The position numbers and the translations under genes were made by a program. From a bacterium (GTDB lineage: Bacteria; Hydrothermota; Tepidihabitantia; SM23-42; JAOAFX01): DNA of 64,000 nucleotides. Below are positions 3,717-63,457 of this stretch, piece after piece. Under the pieces are notes generated by a model, which was given only the letters and a program-made list of their open reading frames with translations, was not told where the DNA came from and made no database searches. How positions within the stretch are numbered: position 1 is the first letter of the stretch; each line of letters opens with the position of its first letter. The stretch is taken from contig JBNAVN010000005.1 in the NCBI GenBank assembly GCA_049700315.1, positions 4,305 to 68,304 on the forward strand, read 5' to 3'.

Positions 3717-3725
3717 AGTTTGAAA

Positions 3726-3753
3726 ATTTTATCTAATTCAGAGCAAAAGTCAA
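3726..3753 (-). promoter_or_regulatory. sigma70-like promoter of the regulator gene
   Basis: TTGACT-16 bp-TAAAAT, ending 9 nt before the ATG at 3716. Confidence 0.65.
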
Positions 3754-3836
3754 GTTCTATCTTGAAAACTGCCCAAAACCCAATGAAATTTAATGAATTT
3801 TAAGCGACATAGGTCCTATATTTTTCTCATATTTTT

Positions 3837-3845
3837 TGATATAAT
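3837..3845 (+). promoter_or_regulatory. Extended -10 promoter (no -35) for the secreted-protein cluster
   Basis: TGATATAAT, no TTGAC at the -35 position; GGAGG RBS before ATG 3866. Confidence 0.45.
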
Positions 3846-3865
3846 TATATCTGAAGGGAGGATTT

Positions 3866-6391: not shown

Positions 6392-6453
6392 AGCGTATCA
6401 ACCCTCTCCCCGATAACGTGTTATCTTGGGGAGAGGAAAGGATAGGAGGTTAT

Positions 6454-8643
6454 GTGGTCATAATATTTATTGCTCTGGTTTCTTTTCAGGGCTTTGATTC
6501 ACTGAATGTTAAGTTCCTTGGCAACTGGCCATTTGGAGATGCATGGGCAGTTGCGATTGATTCTGCAAGGAATTTGACATATCTTGGTTCAGGAGGCGGG
6601 ATTTATATTCTTGATGTCTCAGACCTCTCAAATCCAACAAAGACTTCAGAAAGGATTCATACCCGGGGAATTGTCCGGGGAGTATTTTATGAACCAGAAA
6701 CCAATATCCTGTATGCAGGTTATGATAAGAGAATTTCGTGTAGTGGCGGAGGTGCGGATGATACTATTTCCGGCATTGAACTATGGAATATTCAAGACCC
6801 GCTAAATCCTACAAAATTGAGTTCCTGCTTTATATCCGGGAATGTTTATGCAATTTCTGTGGCAAATATCCCCGCGCGCGGCAAATTTGCATTTGTTGCC
6901 TCTGGAAAGAATGGGTTGCGAATAATTGATGTTACCAATCCACTTTCACCAATAGAAGTTGGATATTTTGATACACATGGAGCACTGGATGTTTTCGTTT
7001 CAGACAGCACTGCTTATCTGGCTGATGCGGACTCGGGTTTAAGGATTATAGATATCTCTATTCCTCAAAACCCGGTAGAAATCGGACGATATCAGACCGC
7101 AAGTGCTGCGTATGGTGTTTATGTGGCGGGTATTTACGCTTATGTCGCCGCATCCACATCAGGGCTGCGAATAATCAAAGTTTCCCAACCTAATCATCCG
7201 ATAGAAGTCGGCTATTATGATACACCGGGTTATGCAGTTCGGGTAAGTGTTGCTGACAACATTGCCTGCGTTGCAGATGAAATTGCTGGATTACGGATAG
7301 TAGATATTTCAGCACCATTCAATCCTGTTGAAGTTGGTTATTATGTTACCCCTGATACTGTGCCGGGAATGGCAGAGGGAGTAACTATTTTTAATTCCCG
7401 TAGTTGTGCAATGGTTGCCTTTGCCAGAGCAGGATTGCGGATAATAGATATCTCAAGCCCTAACCGATATGGCGAAGAACTTGGGCACTTTCTAACCCCA
7501 TCACCTACATCCCAGATTCATGTTGCGAACAATTTTGCATATTTGGCAACAGGTAATTCCGGGTTAAAAATAATTGATGTTTCAGACCCATTTAATCCTT
7601 TTGAAGTTGGTTCTTGTAATACCCCAAATTATGCGCTTGATGTCTTTGTTGCAAATGGATTTGCTTATATTGCGGACAATGCCTCGGGTCTCAGAATAAT
7701 TGACATTACAGATCCCTATAATCCAATTGAAGTTGGTTACTATGATACACCAAATTGGACTACAGGGGTCTTTGTAAAAGATACCTTTGCCTACCTTGCA
7801 GATGGAAATGGAGGTGGCTTGAGGATAATCAATATTTCAGACCCCCATAATCCTTATGAGATTGGAAATTGTCCAACCCACTCCTGTGCAGGGGCTGTAT
7901 TTGTTTTAGATACTCTTGCCTATATTGCAGATGGGTCTGCTGGATTGACGATAATAGATATTTCAAATCCCGGTTCCCCACTTGAGATTAGCAACTGTCC
8001 TATAATGGGTTGGACGAATGATGTGGCGGTTTCAGGAGATCATGCCTATGTTGGAGTAATGGATTTTGCCCCTGGTTTCAGGATAGTTGATGTTTCTGAT
8101 CCAACAAATCCTCACGAGGTTGGTTCCTATCCGACCACCGGTTTCACCTATGGTGTCGCAATTTCCAATCGCATCGCCTATGTTGCGGATGGGTATTTTG
8201 GACTCAGGCTGATAGATATTACCAACCCATTGAATCCATATGAAATCGGGTATTATGGGACATCGGCTTGTGCAGTGGGGATCTTTGTGAACGAGTCTTC
8301 TTCAGTCTACTATCTCGCTGACCTTGATGATGGATTGCAAATTTATGGTCCCTTATCTTATATCAAAGAGAATAAAGAAAAGATTTTAAGAAGAACCCCT
8401 CTCTCAATTTCTACTATCTTCAGAAAGAATATCAGGATAAGACTTGGAAAATCAGTCTCTTCTCCGGTGAAGGTTAATCTTTATAATATCTGTGGGCAGT
8501 GCGTATTTGAAAAAAATTATTCTATCCAGGGTTCAGAGATAATAATTAACGAGACAGATATCTCAAACCTCGGTTCGGGCATTTATTTTGTTAGATTGAG
8601 TACAGTGCTACAAAATACAATAAAGATTATAAAAATAAAATAA
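6454..8643 (+). CDS. Secreted LVIVD-repeat protein with a T9SS type A-like C-terminal domain
   Basis: About 12 repeats of AYxADxxxGLRIIDISxPxNPxEVGYYDT; C-term LYNICGQCV..LGSGIYFVRL..KIIKIK. Start set at the GTG after GGAGG (ORF track starts at 6418). Confidence 0.85.
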   Translation: MVIIFIALVSFQGFDSLNVKFLGNWPFGDAWAVAIDSARNLTYLGSGGGIYILDVSDLSNPTKTSERIHTRGIVRGVFYEPETNILYAGYDKRISCSGGGADDTISGIELWNIQDPLNPTKLSSCFISGNVYAISVANIPARGKFAFVASGKNGLRIIDVTNPLSPIEVGYFDTHGALDVFVSDSTAYLADADSGLRIIDISIPQNPVEIGRYQTASAAYGVYVAGIYAYVAASTSGLRIIKVSQPNHPIEVGYYDTPGYAVRVSVADNIACVADEIAGLRIVDISAPFNPVEVGYYVTPDTVPGMAEGVTIFNSRSCAMVAFARAGLRIIDISSPNRYGEELGHFLTPSPTSQIHVANNFAYLATGNSGLKIIDVSDPFNPFEVGSCNTPNYALDVFVANGFAYIADNASGLRIIDITDPYNPIEVGYYDTPNWTTGVFVKDTFAYLADGNGGGLRIINISDPHNPYEIGNCPTHSCAGAVFVLDTLAYIADGSAGLTIIDISNPGSPLEISNCPIMGWTNDVAVSGDHAYVGVMDFAPGFRIVDVSDPTNPHEVGSYPTTGFTYGVAISNRIAYVADGYFGLRLIDITNPLNPYEIGYYGTSACAVGIFVNESSSVYYLADLDDGLQIYGPLSYIKENKEKILRRTPLSISTIFRKNIRIRLGKSVSSPVKVNLYNICGQCVFEKNYSIQGSEIIINETDISNLGSGIYFVRLSTVLQNTIKIIKIK

Positions 8644-8659
8644 CTAAAAAGGGGTTATA

Positions 8660-10099
8660 ATGATTGAATTATTAATAAATTTTGTAGTATTGTTCGCATA
8701 CACGCAGTTTCCTCCTGATACCATGTGGACACGAACATATGGAGGAGAATATAGTGATGGTGCATATCAGGTGCAGCCAACTATAGACAGTGGATTTATT
8801 GTTACCGGCTGGACATCCCTCACGCCTTTTGATAGAGATGTTTATTTGATAAAGACGGATGACGAAGGTATACTCCAGTGGATAAGGACAATTGGTGGAG
8901 GTGGTCATGATATTGGACGGTCAGTTGCGCAGACTTCAGATAAGGGTTATGTCATAGCTGGGGAGACCAGTTCTTACGGGGCAGGGTCTTTTGATGTCTA
9001 TCTGATAAAGTTTGATTCTGCTGGAAATCTATTATGGGAAAAGACTTTTGGCAGGAGTTTTCAGGATGGTGCCCGATCAATCCAGGAACTTCCCGATGGT
9101 GGTTTCATAATTGCTGGACTTACTGATTCTTTAGGATTTGGTGCCTTCAAAGTATATTTGTTAAAAACAGATGCACAGGGAGAAATAATATGGGAGAAGA
9201 CCTATGGTGGTCAGGGCGCGTGCTGGGCCGAGGAGGTACGGCAGACCAATGATGGAGGTTATATAATCATTGGCAGGAACTACTCAAGTGGTAGCGGTGA
9301 TATCTATCTGGTGAAGTGTGATTTCAATGGTGATACATTGTGGACAAAGATTTTTGGGAACAATGGTGAAGATTATGGATTTTCAGTTAGACAGACTCCA
9401 GACAATGGGTATATAATTTGCGGTTGCACATCATCATTGGGTGCTGGTGGTTATGATATTTACTTGATTAAAACCGATTCGGCAGGCGTAAGAATTTGGG
9501 AAAAGACATTTGGTGGAGCAAATGATGATTATGGATATTCAGTAGCACTTGCTAATGATGGTTTTCTTGTTTCTGGTGCAAGTAACTCCTTGGGGCAGGG
9601 TGCATTTGATATATATCTCATTAAAACGGATAATTCTGGCAATACTTTATGGTATAAAACAATTGGTGGAATTGAGGACGAAATATCTTATTCAGCTCAG
9701 CATACCTTGGATGATGGGTGGATTATTGCTGGAACTACCCGTTCTTTTGGGTCAGGAACCCCAGGGCAACCCAATCTCTATCTCGTAAAACTTGGTTCAG
9801 AGGTTGTAGTTACAGAAGTAAAACGAGAAGAAAAAGGAGTTCTTTTATCCCTTTCACCAACATTATTTAGGGATAAACTTACACTAAAATTAACAACAAC
9901 CTTGAGAAGTCCATTACAGATAGTTCTCTATGATGCTGTTGGTAATAAGGTTTATGAGAAATACAATAATCCGGCCCCCACAATTGAATTGACGGGAAGA
10001 GGAATATCTTTACTTAAAAGTGGGATTTATTTCCTGAGTGTTTATTCAAATGGTAAAAAAATAGGAATGTTTAAGGTAATTCATCTTTCTGCTAAATAA
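8660..10099 (+). CDS. Secreted beta-propeller protein (WxKTYGG repeats) with a T9SS type A-like C-terminal domain
   Basis: Repeated WEKTFGG..D.GYSV.QT.DGGYII.G..DIYLIKTD; C-term LYDAVGNKV..LKSGIYFL. Confidence 0.85.
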   Translation: MIELLINFVVLFAYTQFPPDTMWTRTYGGEYSDGAYQVQPTIDSGFIVTGWTSLTPFDRDVYLIKTDDEGILQWIRTIGGGGHDIGRSVAQTSDKGYVIAGETSSYGAGSFDVYLIKFDSAGNLLWEKTFGRSFQDGARSIQELPDGGFIIAGLTDSLGFGAFKVYLLKTDAQGEIIWEKTYGGQGACWAEEVRQTNDGGYIIIGRNYSSGSGDIYLVKCDFNGDTLWTKIFGNNGEDYGFSVRQTPDNGYIICGCTSSLGAGGYDIYLIKTDSAGVRIWEKTFGGANDDYGYSVALANDGFLVSGASNSLGQGAFDIYLIKTDNSGNTLWYKTIGGIEDEISYSAQHTLDDGWIIAGTTRSFGSGTPGQPNLYLVKLGSEVVVTEVKREEKGVLLSLSPTLFRDKLTLKLTTTLRSPLQIVLYDAVGNKVYEKYNNPAPTIELTGRGISLLKSGIYFLSVYSNGKKIGMFKVIHLSAK

Positions 10100-22987: not shown

Positions 22988-23329
22988 TTGCTTGAAAAAA
23001 AAGGTCATTCTGGACTTGATAAAAGAAGGATAATCCGTAATAAAAAGGAGATAATAGATTTATTAGCAAAGGGAACAAGATTTTCTTGCAATGAGTTTGT
23101 TATAATCTACAAACCCGACAGCGAACCTAAGGTTGGTTTTTTTGCCTCCGGGAAGATCAGAAGTGCGGTAAAACGGAACCGGGTAAAAAGAATTTTAAGG
23201 GAGGCATATAGAATGAATAAGGAAATATTTGAAGGGTTGAAGGTGATTTTTTACGCACATAATTTGCTTGATGCGGAAAATGTGCTTAATGGTTTTGCAT
23301 CATTCAGAAAGGAGCGCTCAAATGGCTAA
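22988..23329 (+). CDS. rnpA: Ribonuclease P protein component
   Basis: RNR motif [14 protein letters not shown]; follows rpmH. Confidence 0.92.
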
Positions 23330-23591
23330 TCTGTTTTTCAGCGTCAAGCAATCAATTCTGCATTTTCTGATTTTTGTAATAAGGGTTTACCAGCATACAT
23401 TTGGACTTGTTCTTCCGAATGCCTGCAGATTCACTCCGACTTGCTCCGAGTATTCAATTGAAGCCCTGAAACGTTTTGGAATCCTCAAAGGTGGATTAAT
23501 GGGTATTAGCCGTATTATGCGGTGTAATCCATTTTCCCCTGGCGGCTATGACCCGGTCTGTGCAAAAAGGATAGGCGACAATGGAAAATGA
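23322..23591 (+). CDS. yidD: Membrane protein insertion efficiency factor
   Basis: [31 protein letters not shown]; AGGAG RBS. Confidence 0.95.
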
Positions 23592-25077
23592 CCAGAAGCG
23601 TACCCTTGTTGCTTTTTTGCTGATCATTGTAATTCTGTTGATCTGGAGTTTTCTGGCAAAACCACCGGCGAGAAAAGCGGTTGTTGAACAACGAACCGAG
23701 ATAACAGATACTACAAAAGTACAGAAAAATGTTTCGGAAAATGTCCAGGTGTCAGGTGATACAATAATCATTGAACGCGAATATTTTCGCGCTGTTTTTT
23801 CAACAATTGGTGCGGGCGTAAAGAGTTTCTATATCAAAAAATATAATGTTGATATTGTACCGGAATCAGGAATACTTTTTCTGACAAAGATCGCTGATTC
23901 CATTTTTGACTTCAATTATGAATTATACGATGATTCTCTGGTGTTCTTCAGAGAAGTCAAAAACAAAAAACTCGTTAAGGTTTATCGATTTAATGAGAAA
24001 CAGGGATTCACATTAAGCATAAATTACCCTGATGCAGTCAATCAGACTCTGAGTCTGAAATCGGGAATAAGAATTACTGAGAAAAAGAATCAAACCGATG
24101 ACCTCAGGCATTTCAATGCCTATGTGCAAAGTAATAAATTTAACAATATCACTAAAAATATAAAAGACCGATTTGTATATAAAGATAACTGGGAATGGTT
24201 CGCGCTGAGGAATAAGTATTTTGTTTTGATTGTCAATAACTTGAATACACATGGCTATTCTGAATTTTACAAACTCACAAAATGTTCAAACAAAGATGAA
24301 ATAAGCTTAGGCTATCTTGGTTGTGCAATGGGTGGTAATACAGGCCGCTACGGAATGGAGATATTTGCTGATTCTGTTTTGAATATTTCCGCTTTATTCC
24401 TGCCAATTATACATTCAGAACTTGCAAAATATAACAAAGGTTATGAACAGATTGCCAGTGGTGGTATCTGGGGACCAATTGCAAGGATTATCATTTTGGT
24501 CCTGAACATTTTCTATTCGTTGTTTAAGAATTATGGAGTTGCGATTATTGTCTTTGCAATTTTGTTCAAGATAATATTCTTTCCTTTATCTCGCCAAATG
24601 CTGATTTCTCAACAGAAGATGCAGATGGTCCAGCCCGAATTGAAGAAATTGCAAGACAAATATAAGAACGACCCACAGGCATTGAATCGGGAAATGATGC
24701 ATCTTTATAAGACCTACAAGGTCAATCCATTTTCTGGATGTTTGCCACTTTTGATTCAGTTTCCGATATTCATTGCCCTTTATCAGGTGCTTTCCACATC
24801 TTTTGAATTTCGCGGTGCGCCTTTTATTCTCTGGATTACAGATCTGTCAATCAAGGATCCGTATTATGTTTTGCCGATCAGCATGGGTGTATTGATGTTT
24901 GTACAATCTTTAATGACTACTGTTGACCCAAGACAGAGATTAATGGTCATTATGATGCCAGTGGTGATGATTTTTGTGTTTTTGAACTTTCCATCAGGCT
25001 TGCAACTATATTGGTTCACTTATAATATTCTGTCCATTATTGAGCAGTTTGTGATAAAAAAGAAAGTTATTCGTTAG
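23581..25077 (+). CDS. yidC: Membrane protein insertase YidC
   Basis: [46 protein letters not shown]. Confidence 0.95.
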
Positions 25078-25141
25078 TTGTTGAATTTTTTGTCCTGCAT
25101 TATGCAGGCATTGGTCTTTAATAAAAAAAGAGGAGGCATAA

Positions 25142-25756
25142 ATGAAAACGATTGAGGCTACAGGAAAAGACCTGAATGAAGCGATCGCTCAGGGAATCAA
25201 GATATTAGGGGTTATCCAGGATGAGATAACCTATGAAATTCTTTCTCAAAGTGAAACAGAAACCAAGGTCAAGATAACAATAAAAGAGCCTCGTCAGTAT
25301 CTGCAAACTCTTACAAATTATGTGTTGACGAGTATGGGGTTCAAGGTTGGCATTACAGTAACCAAAGATGAACAGGGATTTAATATTAGTATCAAAACAA
25401 GGCATGCTGATTCGTTGCTTATCGGTAAAAACGGAGAGAATCTCTGGGCTTTACAGTATATCATTTCAAGACTTGTGAAAAGATTTTATTCTAATATTAA
25501 AATTCTGGTTGATGTTAATGGTTATCGCCAGCACCGTAATAATTTCCTGAGAAAAAAGGCTGAAGCAATTGCGCGCATTGTCTTGCAGACCGGCCGGGAG
25601 ATGGCTCTGGATCCAATGACACCCCGAGAAGAAAGGATAGTAACCAACAAAATAAATGAACTGAAAGGTGTAAAACTATATTCAATCGGTAGAGGCAGTA
25701 ATAGAACTATCATCATTGCACCTACCGTGGAAAATAGTGAAGAGTCAAAAGAGTAG
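25142..25756 (+). CDS. jag: Jag/EloR (KhpB) RNA-binding protein
   Basis: Jag N-term, KH LLIGKNGENLWALQ, R3H-like LDPMTPREER. Confidence 0.88.
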   Translation: MKTIEATGKDLNEAIAQGIKILGVIQDEITYEILSQSETETKVKITIKEPRQYLQTLTNYVLTSMGFKVGITVTKDEQGFNISIKTRHADSLLIGKNGENLWALQYIISRLVKRFYSNIKILVDVNGYRQHRNNFLRKKAEAIARIVLQTGREMALDPMTPREERIVTNKINELKGVKLYSIGRGSNRTIIIAPTVENSEESKE

Positions 25757-25761
25757 AAAAT

Positions 25762-27102
25762 GTGAATGATACGATTGTTGCATGTGCAACACCTGCCGGC
25801 TATTCAAGCATTGCTGTAATCAGGTTCAGCGGTGATGAGGCGATAAATCTTCTAAGAAAGATTTTTGTTTCTTCACAGAATATCTCAGTCTTCTTAGCTG
25901 GTCATGTTTATTATGGCAAAATCGTAAATCCGTCAAATCAAGAAATCATTGATTATGGATTAGCCACTGTGTTCTTTGCACCCAATTCTTACACAGGCGA
26001 AAATGTTGTGGAAATTTCTTGTCATGGAAATCCCATGATCGTTGACCGTATCGTCAAAATTGCGCTGAAACTTGGTGCACGGATTGCCCAGCGTGGCGAA
26101 TTTACAAAGCGGGCTTTTTTGAATAACAGGATTGACCTGATTCAGGCTGAGGCAGTGCTGGATACGGTCTATGCCAATTGTGACACGGTTAGAAAACTTG
26201 CTATCTATCAACTTGAAGGGAAACTTTCAGAATTCATTGAGAGAATAAAAACTGAGATAGTTTCCTTTCTAACCAGAATTGAGGCAAATATTGATTTTCC
26301 CGAGGAAGAGGAAACCGGCTTTGACAGAAATGAATTCAGGAGAGAAATCAGTGAGATACAGAAAAAAATACTAAGTCTATTAGAGTCAGCAGAACAGGGA
26401 ATAAAATTAAAACAGGGTTATAAAGTTGTCATTGCTGGAAGGACGAATGTTGGAAAATCCACGCTCTTTAATAGATTACTTGGCTATGACCGGGCAATTG
26501 TTCATGAAACACCAGGGACCACAAGAGATTATCTTGAAGAACCGGTGGAGATAGAAGGAATTCTGGTCAGATTGATTGATACCGCAGGAATCTTTCTGGA
26601 GGCAGGCGGTCCTGATGATATTGCGAGTAAACGAAGTGAAGAATTGTTGAAGAATGCTGATTTGATACTACAGATTTTTGATGGTGCTGAAGCAATGAAT
26701 GAACAAGACGCTTATCTTTATAATTTAATGAAAGACCTCAATAAAATTTATATCATTAACAAGATTGATTTGAATATTGCGCTGAAGGAAAGTGAGATAT
26801 TAGGTGATGCGATAAAAATTTCCGCAAAAAATGGCGAAAATATTGATATCTTAAAAAGGGCTATTAAAGAACATTTGTTCCCTGAAATGCCCAACGAAAA
26901 TATTCTGATAACAAGAACGCGTCAGATTGAAGCGCTAAAAGCGCTGTACAAATGTCTTTCAAATACCGGGGAATCTCAAACATTGGAGACGGTCGCATTT
27001 GAGTTGCATAATGCACTTGATATCATTGGTGAACTCACAGGAAGGGTATTCCGTGAGGATATCCTCAACAAGATATTTGAAGAATTCTGTGTCGGCAAAT
27101 AA
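25762..27102 (+). CDS. mnmE: tRNA modification GTPase MnmE
   Basis: SYTGENVVEISCHG, GEFTKRAF, GRTNVGKS, PGTTRD, DTAG, FCVGK. Confidence 0.96.
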   Translation: MNDTIVACATPAGYSSIAVIRFSGDEAINLLRKIFVSSQNISVFLAGHVYYGKIVNPSNQEIIDYGLATVFFAPNSYTGENVVEISCHGNPMIVDRIVKIALKLGARIAQRGEFTKRAFLNNRIDLIQAEAVLDTVYANCDTVRKLAIYQLEGKLSEFIERIKTEIVSFLTRIEANIDFPEEEETGFDRNEFRREISEIQKKILSLLESAEQGIKLKQGYKVVIAGRTNVGKSTLFNRLLGYDRAIVHETPGTTRDYLEEPVEIEGILVRLIDTAGIFLEAGGPDDIASKRSEELLKNADLILQIFDGAEAMNEQDAYLYNLMKDLNKIYIINKIDLNIALKESEILGDAIKISAKNGENIDILKRAIKEHLFPEMPNENILITRTRQIEALKALYKCLSNTGESQTLETVAFELHNALDIIGELTGRVFREDILNKIFEEFCVGK

Positions 27103-48646: not shown

Positions 48647-49225
48647 TTATCTCAAGCCGGTTATGCTCAAAAAAACCAGACTTATCAGTGCGAGAATTGA
48701 CAATTCCATAAACAATCGCCATGGTCTGGATATTTTTTTGATTAGATAGATCCGTTCTTTAATTGTCATAAAAATCAATATCACAACAAGATAACCCAAA
48801 CCTGACGCCAAAACAGATATTGTGGTATCTAAAAATACAAGTTTGCGATTGATGTTCAGAAATACTGTACCATAAATTGCATAATTTGTATAGAAAAATT
48901 CAGGATATTTATCAAATAATATTGCAAGGTAAGGATAGGATTGATTCATTGCAAATCTTATATAATGAATTGTAAGCCAGGTGATAAGAATAAACAGGAC
49001 AATTGCTACATGTGTGAAGTTCAGCGGTCGCAATAAGAAATAAAAAATAAACAGATTTAACCAGGCGCTGATGAGCATAATAACGATTAGAATGATACCT
49101 ATCATAAGGCATTCTTTAAGATTTACTGCATACAATATGAGGGGGCAAATACCAAGCAAAGTGTAAAGAACGATATTACTGCCGATAATATGATCTACGA
49201 GTATTGCAAGAAGGTTATTTGCCAT
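48647..49225 (-). CDS. rnfA: RnfA-like membrane subunit (second cluster Cys replaced by Tyr)
   Basis: LLGICP and TNYAIYG at the canonical 88-aa spacing; IKERI; position in the rnf operon. Confidence 0.8.
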   Translation of the reverse strand: MANNLLAILVDHIIGSNIVLYTLLGICPLILYAVNLKECLMIGIILIVIMLISAWLNLFIFYFLLRPLNFTHVAIVLFILITWLTIHYIRFAMNQSYPYLAILFDKYPEFFYTNYAIYGTVFLNINRKLVFLDTTISVLASGLGYLVVILIFMTIKERIYLIKKISRPWRLFMELSILALISLVFLSITGLR

Positions 49226-49796
49226 CGGTCTTTTTCTTTACCAATTCAAAACCTAATAATACAAGTGCGGTCATCAGAAATGCACCAGCAGGGGCATTTA
49301 TAAACAACAAAGCTTTCGATGCCATATCAGGACTCAGTATGGGTTTGTTAACTAATGTGCCCTGTCCCAAAATTTCTCTCAAAATGCCTATAACGAAAAC
49401 AATACAGACAACACCAAGCCATTTCTTTGCAGCGGCAAGCACAAATCTTAATCCTGAATTCTGAGTATTGTTGTATCTTAAACTATACAGCACAAAACTA
49501 TTGATAGCTATCAAAGATATAAATACATCTAAATTGTTGCAGAGTTCAGGAAGATGATATGATAATACCTGCTTAATAATAGTAGTAATCGTACCAGTAA
49601 TAATTATCAGAACAAATGTTCTTGAAGGTTCATTCAAGAATTTAGCAAACAATAAGAAAACTATTCCTGACAAAAATAGTACAATCAATGTCACAATACC
49701 GATGCCCAGGGCATTCAATGCTGTATCAGTTAGGGCAATTATGGGCATAACACCAAGAATAATCAAGAATCCATTTTCTCTTTGATTTTGGATCAT
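49215..49796 (-). CDS. rnfE: RnfE-like membrane subunit (both cluster Cys absent)
   Basis: LGVMP, NALGIG, INS, LREILGQG, PAGAF; ATGA overlap with rnfG. Confidence 0.82.
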   Translation of the reverse strand: MIQNQRENGFLIILGVMPIIALTDTALNALGIGIVTLIVLFLSGIVFLLFAKFLNEPSRTFVLIIITGTITTIIKQVLSYHLPELCNNLDVFISLIAINSFVLYSLRYNNTQNSGLRFVLAAAKKWLGVVCIVFVIGILREILGQGTLVNKPILSPDMASKALLFINAPAGAFLMTALVLLGFELVKKKTDGK

Positions 49797-50698
49797 TTCA
49801 GATAATCTTTGAATTTTTTGATATTTTTTTGAACGCTTTTGATCAAGGCACATGATGAAATTGTCGCGCCAGTTATTGCGTCAGGTATACCAGTTTTGAA
49901 TTTATCAAGAAATTCATGTTCTCTTATTTGTTCACCAATGCCTTCGGTTTCTTTTGAATAGGTAATGATAATCCGTTCAATTGAACCATCCTTTCGTAAT
50001 CCAAGAAGGTATTTGATTGTGTCAAGATAGCCAAATGTCTCACCTGAAAACACTATTCCCAGTGTATCAGAATAGGCAATTGCATACCACAGTGTATCTT
50101 TTATTACTTCAGCGAAATTTCTGGCATCAGCAAAGATTTCCTTTTTTATGTCCTGGATTTTGCCCTGATTTAACACCGATCTGTATCTTTCCATTCCTTT
50201 CTTGATTCCTTCACAAACTGCCTTTGAAGAAATAGTCGCACCGGTTATTGCATCAATTTCACCGCCTTCGCTCTTTAATGAAATATGTGATATTTCTTTA
50301 CCGACAAATTGATTTGTAAAAGCCGCGTCTCTGACCTTTGAACCAAGTCCCTGGGTTTCTTTGAATCCTTCTCTCTTCCCGCCGATTCTTATTCCAGTAA
50401 TCTTGCCATTCACATCAACACCTGCAGTTATCGGAATGACACCGGCATAGGCCCTTGTCCAGACTTTGAAGACGATTCCTTCTAAGTTCTTCAATGAATC
50501 ATATGCCTGCCACAGAGTTTCAGGAAGAACCGGCACAAATTCAACAGCCTTGATCACTGATTTCAGTTTGCTGAGATTAGTGTTATCTTCAGTCTGCGCA
50601 ATCAACGGCTTCGTTTGAATATCTGCTATTGTGAGTATCAAGATACTACATATTATGCTAAACAACACAGGGGCTGTTTGATTCAAAAAATTTTTCAT
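49793..50698 (-). CDS. rnfG: RnfG-like membrane-anchored flavoprotein with two FMN-binding domains
   Basis: N-terminal TM segment; two copies each of ETxGxG and DAITGATISS. Confidence 0.88.
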   Translation of the reverse strand: MKNFLNQTAPVLFSIICSILILTIADIQTKPLIAQTEDNTNLSKLKSVIKAVEFVPVLPETLWQAYDSLKNLEGIVFKVWTRAYAGVIPITAGVDVNGKITGIRIGGKREGFKETQGLGSKVRDAAFTNQFVGKEISHISLKSEGGEIDAITGATISSKAVCEGIKKGMERYRSVLNQGKIQDIKKEIFADARNFAEVIKDTLWYAIAYSDTLGIVFSGETFGYLDTIKYLLGLRKDGSIERIIITYSKETEGIGEQIREHEFLDKFKTGIPDAITGATISSCALIKSVQKNIKKFKDYLK

Positions 50699-50709
50699 TG
50701 AAACCTCCC

Positions 50710-51696
50710 TTATTTAATTTTTGGTTGCCACAATCTTCTATTAGTGAGTTTGTCAATCAGTGGCGTTATGAGATTCATCAGGAGTATCGCAGGTGTCACC
50801 CCTTCAGGATAATGTGAGTAATGTCTGAAAATTGTTGTGAGTATACCGCAGCCAACTCCAAATATCCATCTGCCGTTCTTCGTTATTGGAGTAGTAACCC
50901 AATCCGTTGCCATAAAAAAGATCGCGATCAGGACACCGCCAGTAAATAATTGAAAGATTGGATTAATACTATTGGGCATAACGAAATTTAATAATAGAAA
51001 ACCAACAATATAACCTGATACAATTCTGTAGTCAATGATTTTCAGAAAAAGCAATGCCAGGCCACCAATGATCAAGGCAATTTTGCAGGTTTCTCCTATT
51101 GAGCCTCCAATCATGCCTGAAAACAAGGTTCTCAAGAAGTCGGGTGAATTGAATCTGTTAATTATGGTCTCGGTATTACCATAATACGCAGGATTTTTCA
51201 AGATTGTCAGTGGTGTTGCCTGACTGATCGTATCAATTCCTGAAAAAGAGCCATAGGATGGTGTACGCCATGCTGTGTTCATTATCTGTGGAAAACTTAG
51301 AGTCAAAAACGCCCTTGCAGCAAGTGCGGGATTGAGATAATTAAAACCAAGACCGCCAAATACCTGTTTCACCAGTATGATTGCAAAGCCCGAACCAATG
51401 ATTGGCACCCATAACGGAACCCCCGGCGGCAGGCTCATTGCCAATAATAGTCCAGTCAAAATCGCAGTGCCATCACTTATTGTTATCTTCTTTCCGGCAA
51501 GATATTCAAAAACTGCCTCAGATGTTGTGCTTGATATAACACTGAGAAAGACAATCAAGAAAGCATATGTTCCGAAATTCAATATGCCGAAAACCATTGA
51601 TGGAACGAGTCCAAGACATACTGCATAAACTGCTCTATTTGTACTTAGATTTGAATGAATATGGGGGGGAGCAGATACTACAAGGAGCTCATCCAT
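50710..51696 (-). CDS. rnfD: RnfD membrane subunit
   Basis: KQVFGGLG..NPAL, SQATPL FMNylation motif, GGSIGET, FFMATD..TTP, YPEGV. Confidence 0.92.
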   Translation of the reverse strand: MDELLVVSAPPHIHSNLSTNRAVYAVCLGLVPSMVFGILNFGTYAFLIVFLSVISSTTSEAVFEYLAGKKITISDGTAILTGLLLAMSLPPGVPLWVPIIGSGFAIILVKQVFGGLGFNYLNPALAARAFLTLSFPQIMNTAWRTPSYGSFSGIDTISQATPLTILKNPAYYGNTETIINRFNSPDFLRTLFSGMIGGSIGETCKIALIIGGLALLFLKIIDYRIVSGYIVGFLLLNFVMPNSINPIFQLFTGGVLIAIFFMATDWVTTPITKNGRWIFGVGCGILTTIFRHYSHYPEGVTPAILLMNLITPLIDKLTNRRLWQPKIK

Positions 51697-52969
51697 TTGA
51701 AAATCTCATTTTTGCATATTTAAAGTAGTGAACAAGAGGAATATAAGAAGGGCAGACATAGGCGCAGGAACCACATTCAATACACTCATTCAATCCTTGT
51801 CCAAAGGCATCATCATAATTGCTCTGCGTTATCCTGGCAAAAATTGTCTGGGGTATGAGATGCATTGGACAGGCATCAACACATTTTCCGCATCTTACAC
51901 ACCCCTTTTCTTCTCCATCGTTTATTGAATCTTGAAATACAATACCATTGATAGTCTTTATGACAGGTGTGCTCATAGAAAATTGAGCAATACCGGTCAT
52001 AACACCGCCAAAAATAATTTTTTTTACATTGCTTTTCAAACCGCCACAAAACTGGACGATATCACTTATTGGAGTTCCAATTTTCACCAGGATATTTTTT
52101 GGTTGTTTTATTCCATTTCCGCTTACTGTTATTACCCTTTCAATCAGTGGTTTGCCATACTTTACCGCCTGGAAAATAGCATAGCATGTGCTAACATTCT
52201 GTACAAAAACACCAATATCCATTGGCAATCCATTTGCCGGAACATTTTTCTTTAATATTTTTTTTGTCAATAAACTTTCAGCACCCTGGGGAAATCTATC
52301 CGGCATTATTTTTACTTCTGCACCTTCTTTTTTTAAGAGTCTTGCTGCACCTTCATAGTTTTCTGAAATCGCAAAAACAACTCTGGGGACATTAAGAATC
52401 TTTTGAACAATTTTCGCACCTTCAATCACACAGACCGGATATTCAAGGATGATGTGATAATCCGTGGAAATATTGGGCTCTGATTCACAGCCATTGACTA
52501 CCAATATATCCAGTTTTTTTTCTACAGCATAAGAGATTTTTGAATGCGTAGGAAAACCACCACCTCCTAAACCGACAATACCTGCCTCTTTTATTTTTTC
52601 AAGAAGTTCCTTTCTATCAAAAGACTGGTAATCAACATTGATAAGTGCCTGGTCCCAATCCTCGGAATAATCAGTTTCAATAATACAACACAATGCCCTG
52701 CCAAGCGTGGGATGGGTATAGGATCTTATATCTATTACTTTGCCTGCAACACATGAATGAATACAGGCAGATTGATTTCCGTTTGAATCTCCAATCTTTG
52801 TGCCTATTTTTACGATATCACCAGGCTCTACGACAGGAGTAGCGGGTTTGCCCTTGTGCTGACAAAAAGGAATATATACTCGTTCCGGAATAGGCATTAC
52901 TTCAACGGGAAGATCAAGAATATTTTTTTGTTTTCTCAGGTGAACTCCGTCGCAAAAATTTCCAAACAT
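51689..52969 (-). CDS. rnfC: RnfC NADH/FMN-binding 2x[4Fe-4S] subunit
   Basis: GIVGLGGGGFPT, NGCESEP, PQGAE, CVRCGKCVDACP, CIECGSCAYVCP. Start set at ATG 52969, 7 nt after a TTGACT-16-TATAAT promoter (52977-53004). Confidence 0.92.
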   Translation of the reverse strand: MFGNFCDGVHLRKQKNILDLPVEVMPIPERVYIPFCQHKGKPATPVVEPGDIVKIGTKIGDSNGNQSACIHSCVAGKVIDIRSYTHPTLGRALCCIIETDYSEDWDQALINVDYQSFDRKELLEKIKEAGIVGLGGGGFPTHSKISYAVEKKLDILVVNGCESEPNISTDYHIILEYPVCVIEGAKIVQKILNVPRVVFAISENYEGAARLLKKEGAEVKIMPDRFPQGAESLLTKKILKKNVPANGLPMDIGVFVQNVSTCYAIFQAVKYGKPLIERVITVSGNGIKQPKNILVKIGTPISDIVQFCGGLKSNVKKIIFGGVMTGIAQFSMSTPVIKTINGIVFQDSINDGEEKGCVRCGKCVDACPMHLIPQTIFARITQSNYDDAFGQGLNECIECGSCAYVCPSYIPLVHYFKYAKMRFSNG

Positions 52970-53019
52970 TATTGGTATTATACATGATTTTGGCACCAAG
53001 TCAAGTTTCACATTTCCTC

Positions 53020-53047
53020 TTGACTTTTATCAAAATATGTATATCAT
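53020..53047 (+). promoter_or_regulatory. Promoter divergent from the rnf operon
   Basis: TTGACT-16-TATCAT. Confidence 0.6.
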
Positions 53048-53079
53048 ATATTATGCTCACGAGAAGAGGAGGTGGCATT

Positions 53080-53340
53080 ATGCAAAAGACAGTTGGAGTT
53101 CTTCTGCTTGCCCTGATATTCATTGGTTGTGGTCCAAAATGGGCAAAGAAGGAGACGATGGATGCGCTTAATGAGGCGCGCGCTGCCCTTCAGGCAGCTG
53201 AGGCAAAAATAGGTGAACTTGAGACTGAAAAGGCACAATTGCTCTCTCAAAAGAATGCCCTTGAACAGGAAATTGCAAATCTTTCTGCTGAGGTTGATGC
53301 ACTTCAGACCAAGATAGATACTCGCTGCAAGAAGAAATAG
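53080..53340 (+). CDS. Small coiled-coil lipoprotein (86 aa precursor)
   Basis: Lipobox LIFIG-C, Ala/Leu heptads, C-term RCKKK; AGGAGG RBS. An in-frame leaderless ATG at 53053 is also possible. Confidence 0.8.
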   Translation: MQKTVGVLLLALIFIGCGPKWAKKETMDALNEARAALQAAEAKIGELETEKAQLLSQKNALEQEIANLSAEVDALQTKIDTRCKKK

Positions 53341-53349
53341 GAGGTAAAA

Positions 53350-53946
53350 ATGAAAAGGATACTTGCCATTCTATTTGTTTTGTTCCTGATTCCCACAGCA
53401 ACGGGCTTTGCCCAGGAAAAATTGACTGAGGAACAGGCGCAGGCTGAACTGCAAAATGTAAGAGAAAAACTTCAGCAGGCAGAGGCAAAAATTGCTTCAC
53501 TCCAGTCTGAGATTGCAAACTTGAAGAATGAGATTGCCAATCTTGAGACAAGGCGTGAAGAACTGAAAAGTAAACTCGCTGAATTACAGGAAGCCTGGAA
53601 AAGATGCCAGTATGGAAGATATAAAGTTAATGAAGGCGACTGGCTTTCAAAGATTGCGAGTATGCGTAATGTATATTGCGATGGCAAAAAATGGCCAATG
53701 ATATATGAAGTTAACAAAGATAAAATTAAGAATCCAAATCTCATATATCCGGGCTGGGTCTTATTGATTCCCACGCTTGACGCATATACTGTAGTGCCTG
53801 GCGATTGTCTTGGCCTTATCGCATCCTATCTATCAATTTACTCTGATGCCAAAAAATGGCCAGAGATCTATGAAGCAAATAAAGGCAAGATCAAAGACCC
53901 GGACCTGATTTTTCCGAAGCAGGTTCTTACTATCCCGCACGACTAA
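53350..53946 (+). CDS. Secreted coiled-coil protein with two LysM domains
   Basis: Signal peptide, heptad region, YKVNEGDWLSKIA..W..IYEVN..I.NPNLIYPG and YTVVPGDCL..IA..IYEAN..DPDLIFP. Confidence 0.88.
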   Translation: MKRILAILFVLFLIPTATGFAQEKLTEEQAQAELQNVREKLQQAEAKIASLQSEIANLKNEIANLETRREELKSKLAELQEAWKRCQYGRYKVNEGDWLSKIASMRNVYCDGKKWPMIYEVNKDKIKNPNLIYPGWVLLIPTLDAYTVVPGDCLGLIASYLSIYSDAKKWPEIYEANKGKIKDPDLIFPKQVLTIPHD

Positions 53947-59375: not shown

Positions 59376-60272
59376 ATGGAAAAATATTTTGGCGAACTTG
59401 CCGCATTAGGAACTTCTTTTTGCTGGTCTTTTGGTTCGGTATTGTTCACTATGGCATCGCGCTTGGTAGGCTCAACCGAAGTAAATCGCATCCGGTTGGT
59501 TGTGGGAATGATGCTTCTGATGTTTACTCATTGGATACTATATGGAATGTTATTTCCAGTAAATGCTACTGCACATCACTGGTTCTGGTTTGGCATTTCA
59601 GGTATAATTGGCTTTACAATTGGAGACACATTCTTGTTTCGCGGATATCTACTGATTGGACCTCGTTTGACGATGCTGTTAATGTCTCTCTCGCCAATTT
59701 TCGGCGCAATATTAGCCTGGTTATTTCTCAAGGAATCGTTAAGGTCTCTTGAAATTCTTGCGATAATAATAACACTCTTGGGTATTAGTTTGGTCCTTTA
59801 TGACAAAAGGAATGAGGGATTAGATGAGAAAAATTTCCTTACTGGTATTATCTGTGGTATTTGCGCATCGCTCTGCCAGGCACTTGGTTATTATGCATCA
59901 AAGAAAGGGCTTTTGTGTTGTGATTTTCCTGCTATTTCAGGGAATGTTATACGGGTCACATTTGGCGCAGTTTTCATCTGGCTAATAGCTGGAATCCAGG
60001 GGCAAATAAAAGAGACTTTGGGTAAACTGACAAATAGAAGAGCAGATATGTCCATCTTAGGAGGTGCATTTTTCGGTCCTTTTGTGGGTGTATGGCTATC
60101 ATTGGTTGCAATTCAATATACCAATATCGGGATTGCCTCCACGCTAATGGCGTTACCGCCAGTCATTCTCATCCCAATTTCGCACCTGCTTTTCAAAGAA
60201 CATATCACTCACATTTCAATATTTGGTACGATCATCGCTCTAATTGGCGTTGCTTTGATATTCCTCACTTGA
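59376..60272 (+). CDS. EamA/DMT family transporter
   Basis: 10 TM segments in two repeats; GFTIGDTFLF, GPRL, GIAST..ALPPV. Confidence 0.9.
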   Translation: MEKYFGELAALGTSFCWSFGSVLFTMASRLVGSTEVNRIRLVVGMMLLMFTHWILYGMLFPVNATAHHWFWFGISGIIGFTIGDTFLFRGYLLIGPRLTMLLMSLSPIFGAILAWLFLKESLRSLEILAIIITLLGISLVLYDKRNEGLDEKNFLTGIICGICASLCQALGYYASKKGLLCCDFPAISGNVIRVTFGAVFIWLIAGIQGQIKETLGKLTNRRADMSILGGAFFGPFVGVWLSLVAIQYTNIGIASTLMALPPVILIPISHLLFKEHITHISIFGTIIALIGVALIFLT

Positions 60273-60280
60273 TTCCATCA

Positions 60281-60308
60281 TTGACAAATGACAAATTTTT
60301 GATAAAAT
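60281..60308 (+). promoter_or_regulatory. Promoter of the chemoreceptor-cheW pair
   Basis: TTGACA-16-TAAAAT, 8 nt before ATG 60317. Confidence 0.7.
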
Positions 60309-60316
60309 ATATACAT

Positions 60317-63300
60317 ATGGCTGAAGAAGTCGTTCAGAAATTGCTGGAAAGGCTTAAGCCTTTACTGAGCCAGTACGATTCCAACTTTCAAAATTTTCTT
60401 AATATCGGACAGAGAATAGATAATGCGCTTCAAATCAATACTGATCTTCTGGGAGAAATACGTCAAAGATTCTATAGTTTATCTGCAACCGTGGAACTGG
60501 TGCTTGAAGGTGTTGCGGTGTTTGATGGTGAAATAAAAAAGACCCACGAGTTATTGAAAAAAAGCATTGAAAATTTCAGAGATTCGCTTGCGATTTCCGA
60601 TAAGATAAGTTTTGATCTTACGAATATTGCGAGCATTTTAAAGGAGATACACGAACAGACAGGAAAACTTGCTGATACTATTCAGAATATAGATATGGTT
60701 TCTGAGTCAATAGAAGTTGCGTCTCGCAATGCGGGGATTACCGCTTATCACGCTGGGAGGCAAGGGCGTGGTTTTGAAGTGATTGCACGAGAGATGACCG
60801 GTTTGGTTCGTAGCTCACAGAAACCCACCAGCGCAATCCCCACAATTTCTTTTGAATTGCTCAAAGGTGTTGATGAACTTCATCAAGATTTGAAAAGAAT
60901 TCAGGATGTTATAGTATTTTTGAAGGAAATCGCAAACAAATTCTTGAACATCAATAATGAATTGCTCAATTTGATTCCTTATCTTGAAGACTCCATAAAA
61001 GATATTTCCAACAGCGTTTTGGTTCAGAAAGATTTGCATACTGCCCTGCACAGCGAAAGTGAAAAACTGCCCGCATATTTGAATGAAATATACAGTGTTA
61101 CTCGCACTACCGCAATAACTGAGATGTTTTTGTCCGCATTTTTTCAGCATTTGAACAATACCAAGAATAGTCTGATTTCAGCGAAAAATGATAATAACTT
61201 CTATTATTTTTTTAATACCTTCAATAGAATATTAGAAAACGAGCCCCGTTTAGAGGAAGGCATTGAACAATTAGGTCGTGCCAGCCTAAAAAGACTTGAA
61301 ATTCATTCCTTAGAACGTCTGGCACTGCAGTTTGTATCAGAAGCCAAACACCTGAATGAAATCATAACTCAGATTACAGAAAAAATAAGATCGTGGATAA
61401 ATACCCACAAGTTTGCCAATGAAACGCTTTCTCGTGCTAAAGTTTTCTATGAGGATATTGGAGAATTAGTCAATTCCCTGAGTGTTAAGGCTCACGAGTT
61501 AAAGGAACTTATTAATAAGATAGATAAACCATTGCAGGAATTAAAAAGGATCACTGAACGTTCGCGATTACTTGGATTGTATGCTGGTATTGAAAGTGCG
61601 CGGAGTGGCGAATACTCAAGCGCACTCGGTGTGGTTACATCTGAAATAAAAACGCTATCAGTCAAGTCCACCGAATTTGTGGCTGCAATTGACAAGATTG
61701 AGGGTGAAATGCTGGCAGATTTCAGAAATTTGATTTCCTGTTTCATACGTGCTTCAGGAGACGTGGAATTAGGGCTTGATGCACTAAATGACTCTTTAGT
61801 GGCAATAAATGAAAGTTCCAAAGTATTAGACAATCTTTCTTCTCTTTCTCAAGAGATGCTCAGTTCCACGCGTGAAATGACAAATCAATGCGGGTTGCTC
61901 AGTGACCATCACAGGATCTTTGAATCTGAGTACCAGAAGATCAATGAGGATTTTGCTTCGTACGGGAATACGATAAAAACAGGCGAAACATTGACCAGGG
62001 AAATAAAGTCAATCATCGCTGAATTCAAGAAAGATGTCTTTGTCATTACAACTTCACGAAAAACAATCGTTTTTCGTGCAACAGAAGATCCTATTGTTCT
62101 GGATCCCGCTATCAAGACTGATACTACAAGTCACCAGATAATTGAACAGATGTTCACAGGGCTCTATACCTTTGATCAGTTGAATCATTTGATTCCCGGT
62201 GTAGCAAAGTCTTTTTCGGTTTCAGCAGATGGTAAGATCTGGGATTTCTTTATCAAAAAGGGAGTCAAATTTCACAATGGAGTAGAAGTTCAGGCAAAGG
62301 ACGTAGTTAATTCACTAAATAGAGTAAGAAAAGGTCCGAATGCATCTTTTATTGAGTATGTCTCAGATATGATAGTCATTGACCCTTATCATATTAGGTT
62401 CACCCTCAAGTTTCCTTATGTGCCATTTTTGGCGAACATTTCCTGTGGTATTGGTGATATTGTTCCATCTGATTTTGATCAAGAACACCCAATAGGTTGC
62501 GGTCCGTACAAACTCATTTCCTACGAAAAGAAAAGACAGATCATCCTGGAGGCATTTGAAGATTTTTTTGACGGTAGACCACCTGTAGACAGTTGTGTCG
62601 TTTTGAATATCACAGATGACAATGAAGCCATAGACCTTTTCAAAAAGGGCCAGATTTCAATCTTGAGTCTAACCTCAAATATGCTAAGAGATTTTTCCCC
62701 TGAAACTATCTATTCTGGTTCAGCACTTTCTACCCAATACCTGGCGATCAATTTTTCAAAGAAATCACCTTTCTTAGATTTGCGCGTGCGTCAGGCAATG
62801 AATTATGCAATTGATAGAGATCTTTATTGCCGGGAACTGCTCGGAGGAAAAGCAATTCCTGCGTATGGCGTTTACCCGCCAGGATTGCCAGGATACAACA
62901 AGGGTCTAATAAGTTATAACTATGACCTGAAAAAAGCTCGAGATTTGATGAAAGAAGCAGGCTTTGGAACCGGCATATCAGATGTATTTCAGCTTGATGT
63001 ACGGTCAGGCGTTGACAATATAAGAAGAGCAAAATTTATTAAAGATTCATTTGCAAAAATTGGGATATATTTGGAGGTCAATGCATTGCCCTGGGAGGAA
63101 TTTCTGAATAAGACCTATAGTGGTAACAGCATTCTTTGTTTACGAGGCTGGGTTTCAGACAACGGTGATCCTGATAATTTTGTTTCACTATTTCACTCCA
63201 AAAATTTTGGGGCAAGTGGCAATACTTCTTTCTACGGCAATGAAGAACTTGACAGGATGATTGAATCGGCTCGCGCAGAGCAAATAATAAGACGCCGAAT

Positions 63301-63457
63301 GGAATTGTACCAGAAAATAGAAAAATTCATTGTTGATAATGCACTCTGGGTTTTTGTTTCACACGGTGTTGACTGTTATGCTGTTCAGAAAAATATAAAA
63401 GGTTTTGTGGTTGATCCATTTGGTTTGGTTCGTTTCAGAAACCTTTATTGCGAGTAA
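60317..63457 (+). CDS. Soluble chemoreceptor-like protein with two MCP signalling domains fused to a C-terminal ABC solute-binding family 5 (OppA/DppA-like) domain
   Basis: RNAGITAYHAGRQGRGFEVIAREM and RLLGLYAGIESARSGEYSSALGVVTSEI hairpin motifs; LDP..IIEQMFTGL..A.S..S.DG..W.F.IKKGVKFHNG family 5 signature; no TM segment seen. Confidence 0.85.
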   Translation: MAEEVVQKLLERLKPLLSQYDSNFQNFLNIGQRIDNALQINTDLLGEIRQRFYSLSATVELVLEGVAVFDGEIKKTHELLKKSIENFRDSLAISDKISFDLTNIASILKEIHEQTGKLADTIQNIDMVSESIEVASRNAGITAYHAGRQGRGFEVIAREMTGLVRSSQKPTSAIPTISFELLKGVDELHQDLKRIQDVIVFLKEIANKFLNINNELLNLIPYLEDSIKDISNSVLVQKDLHTALHSESEKLPAYLNEIYSVTRTTAITEMFLSAFFQHLNNTKNSLISAKNDNNFYYFFNTFNRILENEPRLEEGIEQLGRASLKRLEIHSLERLALQFVSEAKHLNEIITQITEKIRSWINTHKFANETLSRAKVFYEDIGELVNSLSVKAHELKELINKIDKPLQELKRITERSRLLGLYAGIESARSGEYSSALGVVTSEIKTLSVKSTEFVAAIDKIEGEMLADFRNLISCFIRASGDVELGLDALNDSLVAINESSKVLDNLSSLSQEMLSSTREMTNQCGLLSDHHRIFESEYQKINEDFASYGNTIKTGETLTREIKSIIAEFKKDVFVITTSRKTIVFRATEDPIVLDPAIKTDTTSHQIIEQMFTGLYTFDQLNHLIPGVAKSFSVSADGKIWDFFIKKGVKFHNGVEVQAKDVVNSLNRVRKGPNASFIEYVSDMIVIDPYHIRFTLKFPYVPFLANISCGIGDIVPSDFDQEHPIGCGPYKLISYEKKRQIILEAFEDFFDGRPPVDSCVVLNITDDNEAIDLFKKGQISILSLTSNMLRDFSPETIYSGSALSTQYLAINFSKKSPFLDLRVRQAMNYAIDRDLYCRELLGGKAIPAYGVYPPGLPGYNKGLISYNYDLKKARDLMKEAGFGTGISDVFQLDVRSGVDNIRRAKFIKDSFAKIGIYLEVNALPWEEFLNKTYSGNSILCLRGWVSDNGDPDNFVSLFHSKNFGASGNTSFYGNEELDRMIESARAEQIIRRRMELYQKIEKFIVDNALWVFVSHGVDCYAVQKNIKGFVVDPFGLVRFRNLYCE

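Follow-up and report, generated by a model that had tools for sequence, protein, structure and literature searches.

What becomes of an Rnf complex when its two membrane subunits lose the cysteines that hold their shared [2Fe-2S] centre? The question is raised by an rnf operon on a 64,000-nucleotide stretch of contig JBNAVN010000005.1 (GenBank assembly GCA_049700315.1, forward-strand positions 4,305 to 68,304), hereafter the window, in which one of the four ligand cysteines of RnfA and RnfE is left. The comparisons presented here strongly support the view that this RnfA/E pair is incapable of holding a canonical [2Fe-2S] cluster, and the complex of the clade to which it belongs is probably no longer the ferredoxin-driven sodium pump that its annotation implies. 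We give about even chances to a more specific reading, namely that a subclade of candidate division WOR-3 possesses a derived, functional RnfC-D-G-E-A complex that no longer contains the membrane [2Fe-2S] centre between RnfA and RnfE.

In the canonical complex, electrons pass from ferredoxin through the RnfB clusters to the A/E [2Fe-2S] centre in mid-membrane and on to the flavin mononucleotide (FMN) of periplasmic RnfG, from where they reach NAD+ by way of the RnfD flavins and the iron-sulfur (Fe-S) clusters and FMN of RnfC (PMC12174285, PMC11889175). In the mechanism put forward for Acetobacterium woodii, reduction of the A/E centre is proposed to draw in Na+ and flip RnfA/E, and is thus the trigger of pumping (PMC11889175). 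A 2025 review of RNF and NQR describes the core membrane subunits as having strictly conserved cofactors (PMC12174285), and a metabolic reconstruction of WOR-3 presents Rnf, from the presence of KEGG Orthology (KO) terms alone, as the primary respiratory enzyme that translocates Na+ and is ubiquitous in the phylum (PMC12542636). Our literature search for RnfB-less or cysteine-less Rnf complexes found no paper describing an Rnf without the A/E cysteines.

Loss of cluster ligands in RnfA and RnfE

The operon is a tightly packed rnfC-rnfD-rnfG-rnfE-rnfA array on the minus strand at 48647-53011, followed by a PcrA/UvrD helicase gene. It comprises the following genes:

51689-53011, minus strand: rnfC, NAD(H)/FMN module that carries two [4Fe-4S] motifs (TIGR01945, 449.7 bits against a cutoff of 246)
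50710-51696, minus strand: rnfD, canonical, 328 residues (TIGR01946, 276 bits against a cutoff of 207)
49793-50698, minus strand: rnfG, 301 residues, N-terminal membrane anchor and two FMN-binding domains (two Pfam FMN_bind matches)
49215-49796, minus strand: rnfE, 193 residues, divergent, without a ligand cysteine (PF02508, 90.7 bits; TIGR01948, 95 bits against a cutoff of 213.4)
48647-49225, minus strand: rnfA, 192 residues, divergent, with one of two ligand cysteines (PF02508, 60.8 bits; TIGR01943, 70.5 bits against a cutoff of 229.3)

RnfA and RnfE thus fall far under the NCBIfam cutoffs (TIGR01943, TIGR01948) while remaining members of the Pfam Rnf-Nqr family PF02508, and the NCBI label on one clade member is only 'Rnf-Nqr domain containing protein'. 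The rnfE ATG overlaps the rnfG stop codon in an ATGA junction, and RnfE residues are counted from this ATG at 49796.

To locate the ligand positions, both proteins were aligned by phmmer with those of A. woodii (9ERI), Clostridium tetanomorphum (7ZC6), Azotobacter vinelandii (8AHX) and the Vibrio cholerae NQR (7XK3). The cluster of A. woodii, termed AE1, is ligated by RnfA C25 and C113 and by RnfE C25 and C108 (PMC11889175). Motifs of the window pair with those of the structures as LGICP/LGICP and TNY/TNC in RnfA and as LGVMP/LGMCP and INS/VNC in RnfE, and the absence of gaps around both motifs against all four solved structures makes the alignment unambiguous, as the first-pass annotation of the window had held. 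That annotation had also reported three of the four [2Fe-2S] ligands as replaced, and translation reproduces its residues and codons exactly:

49145-49147, minus strand: RnfA Cys27 codon, the sole retained ligand cysteine (Cys in nearly all clade members, Ser in L011)
48881-48883, minus strand: RnfA Tyr115 codon TAT, at the position of A. woodii ligand Cys113 (Tyr, Phe or Ile in the clade)
49746-49748, minus strand: RnfE Met17 codon ATG, at the position of A. woodii ligand Cys25 (Met, Ile, Val or Thr in the clade)
49497-49499, minus strand: RnfE Ser100 codon AGT, aligned with ligand Cys108 (12 of 13 clade sequences have Ser and one has Pro)
48869-48907, minus strand: RnfA motif YPEFFYTNYAIYG, a remodelled broken helix where canonical proteins have Y(L/I)PLITTNCAVLG, almost invariant among clade members

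The related locus L011, from the metagenome-assembled genome (MAG) SKW300, goes one step further: its RnfA reads LLGISPF, with Ser in place of Cys27, and none of the four ligands is left. RnfA Cys39 and RnfE Cys86, which the annotation had named as possible substitute ligands, were rejected along with RnfE Cys131, since none of the three is conserved: the first is Thr or Ser in several clade members and the other two are found in the window protein alone. Clade RnfE proteins share no conserved cysteine, and two of them (P0028 and P0032) are entirely cysteine-free. A mononuclear or mixed-ligand metal site made of RnfA Cys27, Glu109, Tyr112 and Tyr115 was likewise rejected, given the motif YPEFFQTNF in L007 and L009 and Ser27 in L011. 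Together with the remodelling of neighbouring functional residues described below, the lack of a conserved compensating cysteine and the complete loss in L011 strongly support the implication that RnfA/E is unable to hold the canonical cluster.

Distribution and selective constraint

At least 15 RnfA and 13 RnfE relatives carry the substitutions, and all of them belong to candidate division WOR-3 where the source names the organism. In RnfA the substitutions are present in all 11 aligned sequences and also at L007, L009, L011 and L012; in RnfE they are present in all 13 cluster representatives or loci. A word-indexed search returned ten RnfA relatives (46-71% identity), all with LG(I/L)CP and YPEFF(Y/Q)TN(Y/I/F). 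For RnfE, a genome scan with the single protein returned no relative and the word-indexed search just one close relative, while HMMER, run exhaustively against 1.84 billion cluster representatives, returned 11 at 106-178 bits, followed by a sharp fall to 87 bits or less. These 11 have no cysteine at any ligand position that they cover, one of them being a fragment that spans the second position only. The variant RnfA occurs in seven species-level MAGs of GTDB, five of which are titled candidate division WOR-3. Because the substitutions recur in every member of the clade, they constitute a lineage trait and are not attributable to chance or sequencing error.

The gene order rnfC-D-G-E-A-pcrA is kept in all 11 related loci, and each of the 12 loci has intact reading frames whose start and stop codons overlap. 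Ratios of nonsynonymous to synonymous substitution rates (dN/dS, Nei-Gojobori) range from 0.10 to 0.27 for rnfE, from 0.16 to 0.54 for rnfA, where the top value stems from a pair with very few substitutions, and from 0.11 to 0.18 for rnfC, rnfD and rnfG. An AlphaFold model of RnfA (predicted local distance difference test score, pLDDT, 78) superimposes on 7ZC6_A, 8AHX_A, 9ERI_A and NqrE with template modelling (TM) scores of 0.80-0.84 at 20-23% identity; the RnfE model (pLDDT 63) was too poor for use. The substitution ratios, the conserved synteny and the RnfA fold therefore indicate that rnfA and rnfE encode folded proteins under purifying selection. Within the clade, identity is 63-65% for RnfC, RnfD and RnfG, 41% for RnfE and 48% for RnfA, and as judged from such identities the shift in constraint is confined to RnfA and RnfE, leaving RnfC, RnfD and RnfG unaffected.

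Remodelling beyond the cysteines

Replacement is not limited to the ligands. With the exception of RnfA K32, the positions compared here, given in A. woodii numbering, do not differ among the four solved Rnf/Nqr sequences:

RnfA E88: Lys or Arg in 10 of 11 clade sequences (Arg90 in the window)
RnfA P107: Glu in 11 of 11
RnfA L108: Phe in 11 of 11
RnfA T110: Tyr in 10 of 11
RnfA K32 (three of the four solved sequences have Lys): hydrophobic in the clade
RnfE E115: Lys or Arg in 9 of 13 (Arg107 in the window)
RnfE R113: lost in the clade
RnfE T32: Asp in 11 of 13

In A. woodii, RnfA K32 senses the RnfB cluster, and RnfE R67, RnfE E115 and RnfA E88 form an ion-pair network that gates Na+ (PMC11889175). 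The charges of this network are replaced in the clade, mostly by the opposite charge, and RnfE R67 is present in the window and in 8 of 13 clade sequences.

A related operon with all four cysteines

RnfD proteins from the WOR-3 order SM23-42 come next in similarity (51-56% identity). Two loci of this sister group (L013 and L014, GCA_001303785.1) carry rnfC-D-G-E-A with a two-domain RnfG of 298 residues, without rnfB in the operon and in a genomic neighbourhood that differs from that of the window. RnfA and RnfE of these loci are canonical throughout: they have LGLCP/TTNC and IGLCP/VVNC, the RAEA motif, RnfA E88 and all four cysteines. Identity between the window and the sister group is 49-54% for RnfC, RnfD and RnfG (54% for RnfD, 49% for RnfC), 28% for RnfE and 31% for RnfA. 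Because the sister group has this operon with the four cysteines in place, the loss of the cysteines is derived, and because it also has a two-domain RnfG, the duplication in RnfG predates that loss.

In the sister group itself, domain 1 of RnfG (L013, 8017-8913) reads EAITAATISS, with Ala for Gly and Glu for Asp, and domain 2 retains SGAT. No rnfG was called in L014 (about 8000-8830), where the DNA gives a shorter frame that seemingly lacks the region of the first flavinylation motif.

A proposed one-path electron conduit

The cofactor motifs of the remaining subunits are retained. RnfC, with Pfam matches to RnfC_N, Complex1_51K, SLBB and Fer4, carries the predicted NAD(H)/FMN site and two CxxCxxCxxxCP motifs, CVRCGKCVDACP at 51866-51901 and CIECGSCAYVCP at 51749-51784. 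RnfD, whose sole Pfam domain is PF03116, has the flavinylation motif SQAT with Thr161 at 51214-51216, and in the alignment with chain D of 7ZC6 (243 bits) its 'sqatpl' pairs with 'TATPL'. RnfG is 301 residues long, against the usual 190-210 or so, and has the flavinylation motif DAITGATISS in each of its two domains (Thr155 at 50234-50236 and Thr279 at 49862-49864). The domains are 32.5% identical to each other (E 5e-16) and make RnfG an internal tandem duplication, a feature kept throughout the clade and in the SM23-42 sister group; domain 1 can be aligned with RnfG of 7ZC6 and 9ERI, and both flavinylation motifs are present in L001, L002, L003, L005 and L011. As regards the start of rnfC, the earliest one after a stop codon is GTG at 53011 (440 residues), and homologues of 426-430 residues favour ATG at 52969 (426 residues).

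Without a mid-membrane cluster, electrons would not pass from a cytoplasmic RnfB-type donor to the FMN of periplasmic RnfG. Electron tunnelling has general limits of distance, and with the A/E cluster missing a cytoplasmic donor would lie too far from the periplasmic FMN. From the structures we infer that the ferredoxin limb would therefore be dead, with or without RnfB, and the complex would thus no longer be a ferredoxin:NAD+ oxidoreductase that pumps Na+ by redox-gated RnfA/E. Since the limb formed by RnfC, RnfD and RnfG appears intact and the ferredoxin limb dead, we propose a one-path conduit, in which electrons would be exchanged between NAD(H), the FMN and Fe-S clusters of RnfC, the RnfD flavin(s), the first and then the second FMN of RnfG, and an extracytosolic partner, the second flavin of RnfG pointing away from the complex. 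The path might be used in either direction, exporting electrons from NADH or passing those of a periplasmic donor to NAD+. Because an electron would cross the membrane only once, such a conduit would be electrogenic, and the membrane potential would therefore favour export of electrons and oppose their import. RnfA/E would stay on as the core in the membrane to which RnfD and RnfG are held, and might possess a redox-independent cation site. The negative part of this proposal, that the complex is not a canonical Rnf pump, is well founded; the replacement function we infer.

No rnfB was found in the operon, in the window or in the 6-10 kb flanks of the 11 related clade loci, and RnfC is the sole open reading frame (ORF) with Fe-S motifs in the window and in all 11 of these loci. 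Several points weigh against the proposed conduit. The electron path and its direction are read from motifs only, and neither an ApbE flavin transferase nor a candidate periplasmic redox partner was found in the window. The lack of rnfB in the operon cannot be read as its absence from the genome, because the sister operons with intact cysteines also lack it. A published KO table lists rnfB matches in most WOR-3 MAGs of one subgroup; the table covers subgroup 4 only and contains none of the clade MAGs that were sought in it by name or accession. Elsewhere in the clade genomes there may be a second, canonical rnf operon. Finally, conservation of RnfA/E in the clade peaks at the two broken helices that formerly held the cluster, where RnfA Thr113 and Asn114 and RnfE Asn99 are invariant, which suggests that the A/E centre does more than scaffolding.

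The same table contains two MAGs with KO matches to rnfC and rnfD (one also to rnfG) and none to rnfA, rnfE or rnfB; these MAGs are not linkable to the clade.

Alternative explanations

The concentration of the strongest conservation on the two broken helices also speaks for an alternative in which RnfA/E has been repurposed as a redox-independent pathway for Na+ or H+, either mechanically coupled to movements of RnfG and RnfD or acting alone, with electrons taking the C-D-G path only. Residues near the cluster that bind Na+ in A. woodii (RnfA T111 and N112, RnfE N107 and L103) are retained in the clade, and charges have been swapped, not deleted, in that RnfA E88 and RnfE E115 are replaced by Lys or Arg while RnfA has gained an invariant Glu109 and RnfE an Asp24. 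These are observations on sequence, and packing after aromatic filling of the cluster cavity (YPEFFYTNY) could give the same pattern; we regard such a pathway as unlikely but worth keeping in view.

It is a good deal less probable that the complex is still a ferredoxin:NAD+ Rnf pump, with rnfB elsewhere in the genome and a metal or redox centre in A/E built on other ligands, such as RnfA Cys27 and Glu109 with Tyr112 or Tyr115 and RnfE Ser100 or Asp24. RnfA Cys27, Glu109, Thr113 and Asn114 and RnfE Asn99 are indeed invariant or nearly so in the clade, and rnfB is unlinked in the sister group with cysteines as well. No candidate set of ligands survives across the clade, however: Cys27 is Ser in L011, Tyr112 is Gln and residue 115 Phe in the YPEFFQTNF motif of L007 and L009, residue 115 is Phe or Ile in others, an aliphatic residue stands at position 17 of RnfE, and two of the RnfE proteins lack cysteine altogether. 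We are aware of no stable [2Fe-2S] site that has just one cysteine or none.

That rnfA and rnfE are decaying into pseudogenes of a functionless complex would fit their low NCBIfam scores and their faster evolution relative to RnfC, RnfD and RnfG, but this possibility is very slight and largely refuted by the intact frames in 12 loci, by dN/dS values well below 1 in most comparisons, by the invariance of the new motifs and by synteny that is held across members just 33-59% identical in RnfE. An error of sequencing or assembly in the window, which the first-pass annotation had already discounted, is refuted by identical substitutions in independent NCBI, JGI, ENA and Logan assemblies and in every clade member.

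Comparison with known systems

The preferred reading, a functional complex that has lost its A/E cluster, can be set against several known systems. The operon resembles canonical Rnf (9ERI, 7ZC6, 8AHX) in its rnfC-D-G-E-A order, in RnfC and RnfD that score above the TIGR cutoffs, in the FMN domain of RnfG and in the Rnf-Nqr fold of RnfA and RnfE, with its six helices, two of them broken. It differs in that three of the four ligands are missing, the gating Glu residues are mostly Lys or Arg in the clade, the operon has no rnfB and RnfG is duplicated. RnfA and RnfE of the window are 21-30% identical to any canonical sequence, as compared with 41-46% between A. woodii RnfA/RnfE and V. cholerae NqrE/NqrD and 64-70% between the canonical proteins of two Firmicutes, A. 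woodii and C. tetanomorphum.

The NADH:quinone oxidoreductase that translocates Na+ (Na+-NQR) differs from the window system, where no NqrF-like gene is found, RnfC keeps its Fe-S and NADH motifs, unlike NqrA, and scores against the nqr models stay far short of the cutoffs. NqrA has been proposed to be a cofactor-less descendant of RnfC that was kept as a structural subunit after the loss of rnfB (PMC4014512). The two cases are mirror images: Na+-NQR has kept the NqrD/E cluster, whereas in the window the RnfC cofactor motifs are kept and the RnfA/E cluster has been lost.

The proposed one-path logic of the clade resembles that of systems treated in the passages of Meheust et al. 2021 on RNF and RnfG, which describe one-path NQR/RNF-like systems and propose a multi-flavinylated RnfG as an extracytosolic acceptor branch (PMC8238504); these passages make no mention of a loss of the A/E cysteines. 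As described there, the NQR/RNF-like systems have an RnfD-NqrF fusion (PF00175) and no RnfC, RnfA or RnfE, whereas RnfD of the window stands alone (PF03116), and the RNF clusters with multi-flavinylated RnfG combine an RnfG of more than one FMN-binding domain with RnfB (K03616) (PMC8238504). In the window the two FMN_bind domains are present and RnfB is not in the cluster.

Loss of the cysteines in other lineages

Among the best 150 RnfE-like representatives, a list biased to divergent sequences, alignment shows at least one ligand cysteine to be missing from about 29 that lie outside the clade. Three loci were read directly:

L004 (ENA ERZ27257292), 1-2035: rnfD, a further gene, rnfE and rnfA, with none of four ligand cysteines
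L016 (Logan SRR30092111), 2115-8204: rnfC-D-G-E-A with an RnfG of 309 residues and apbE nearby, no rnfB, none of four ligand cysteines
L015 (ENA ERZ27257345), 4086-8827: rnfC-D-G-like-E-A-B, rnfB present, one of four ligand cysteines

By these loci, loss of the cysteines was independent in three other lineages and has thus occurred several times. In L004, the gene between rnfD and the RnfE-like gene encodes a protein of 166 residues without a Pfam match, the RnfA-like protein reads FLGIDFKD and LITMNS, and genes for a glycosyltransferase and an S-layer homology (SLH) protein adjoin. The motifs of L016 are LLGVYTF and LLTNS in RnfA and LGLTP and AVNY in RnfE, an independent parallel to the WOR-3 case. 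In L015, RnfE is cysteine-free, RnfA has one of its two ligands and RnfB has 20 cysteines; the RnfG-like protein (243 residues, with an acidic insert) has no FMN_bind match or flavinylation motif.

We tentatively suggest a 'half-Rnf' class of several origins (the WOR-3 subclade, L004, L016 and L015) that would have discarded the ferredoxin limb. RnfC, RnfD and RnfG would here form a one-way conduit between NAD(H) and an extracytosolic flavin, sensitive to membrane potential, and the cluster-less RnfA/E would serve as a redox-independent cation site or gate. This suggestion is more doubtful than the reading proposed for the WOR-3 subclade. The independent cysteine-less pairs suggest that annotation pipelines label a functionally different enzyme as Rnf, and the KO-based view of Rnf as a Na+ pump in WOR-3 is probably wrong for this subclade. 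A clade in which RnfA/E is under selection and has no cluster amounts to a natural knock-out of the proposed trigger of Na+ pumping, and whether its complex still moves ions bears directly on the debate about the route of Na+, by way of RnfA/E or of RnfD/NqrB. Set beside the degeneration of RnfC to NqrA, such a loss would mean that either half of the electron loop can be shed.

Other features of the window

The plus strand at 52972-53946 encodes, divergently from rnfC, two small proteins with coiled coils, of which the second has LysM domains. The pair (86 and about 197 residues) is found at the same position in L001, L002 and L005 and not in L003.

Three further regions of the plus strand are of note:

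3866-8643, plus strand: large secreted-type proteins, one with Sortilin/BNR repeats and one with eight LVIVD repeats plus a Por_Secre_tail (a sorting domain of the type IX secretion system, T9SS)
22988-27102, plus strand: rnpA-yidD-yidC-jag-mnmE cluster, with no dnaA seen adjoining
60092-63457, plus strand: long ORF of up to 1121 residues with a methyl-accepting chemotaxis protein (MCP) signalling domain (residues 457-598) and a C-terminal family-5 solute-binding domain (residues 700-1038)

The rnpA-yidD-yidC-jag-mnmE cluster typically lies near the replication origin. The 5' end of the long ORF overlaps an EamA gene, its true start being later, and cheW comes next; the ORF either has an architecture unusual for a chemoreceptor or results from a fused gene call.

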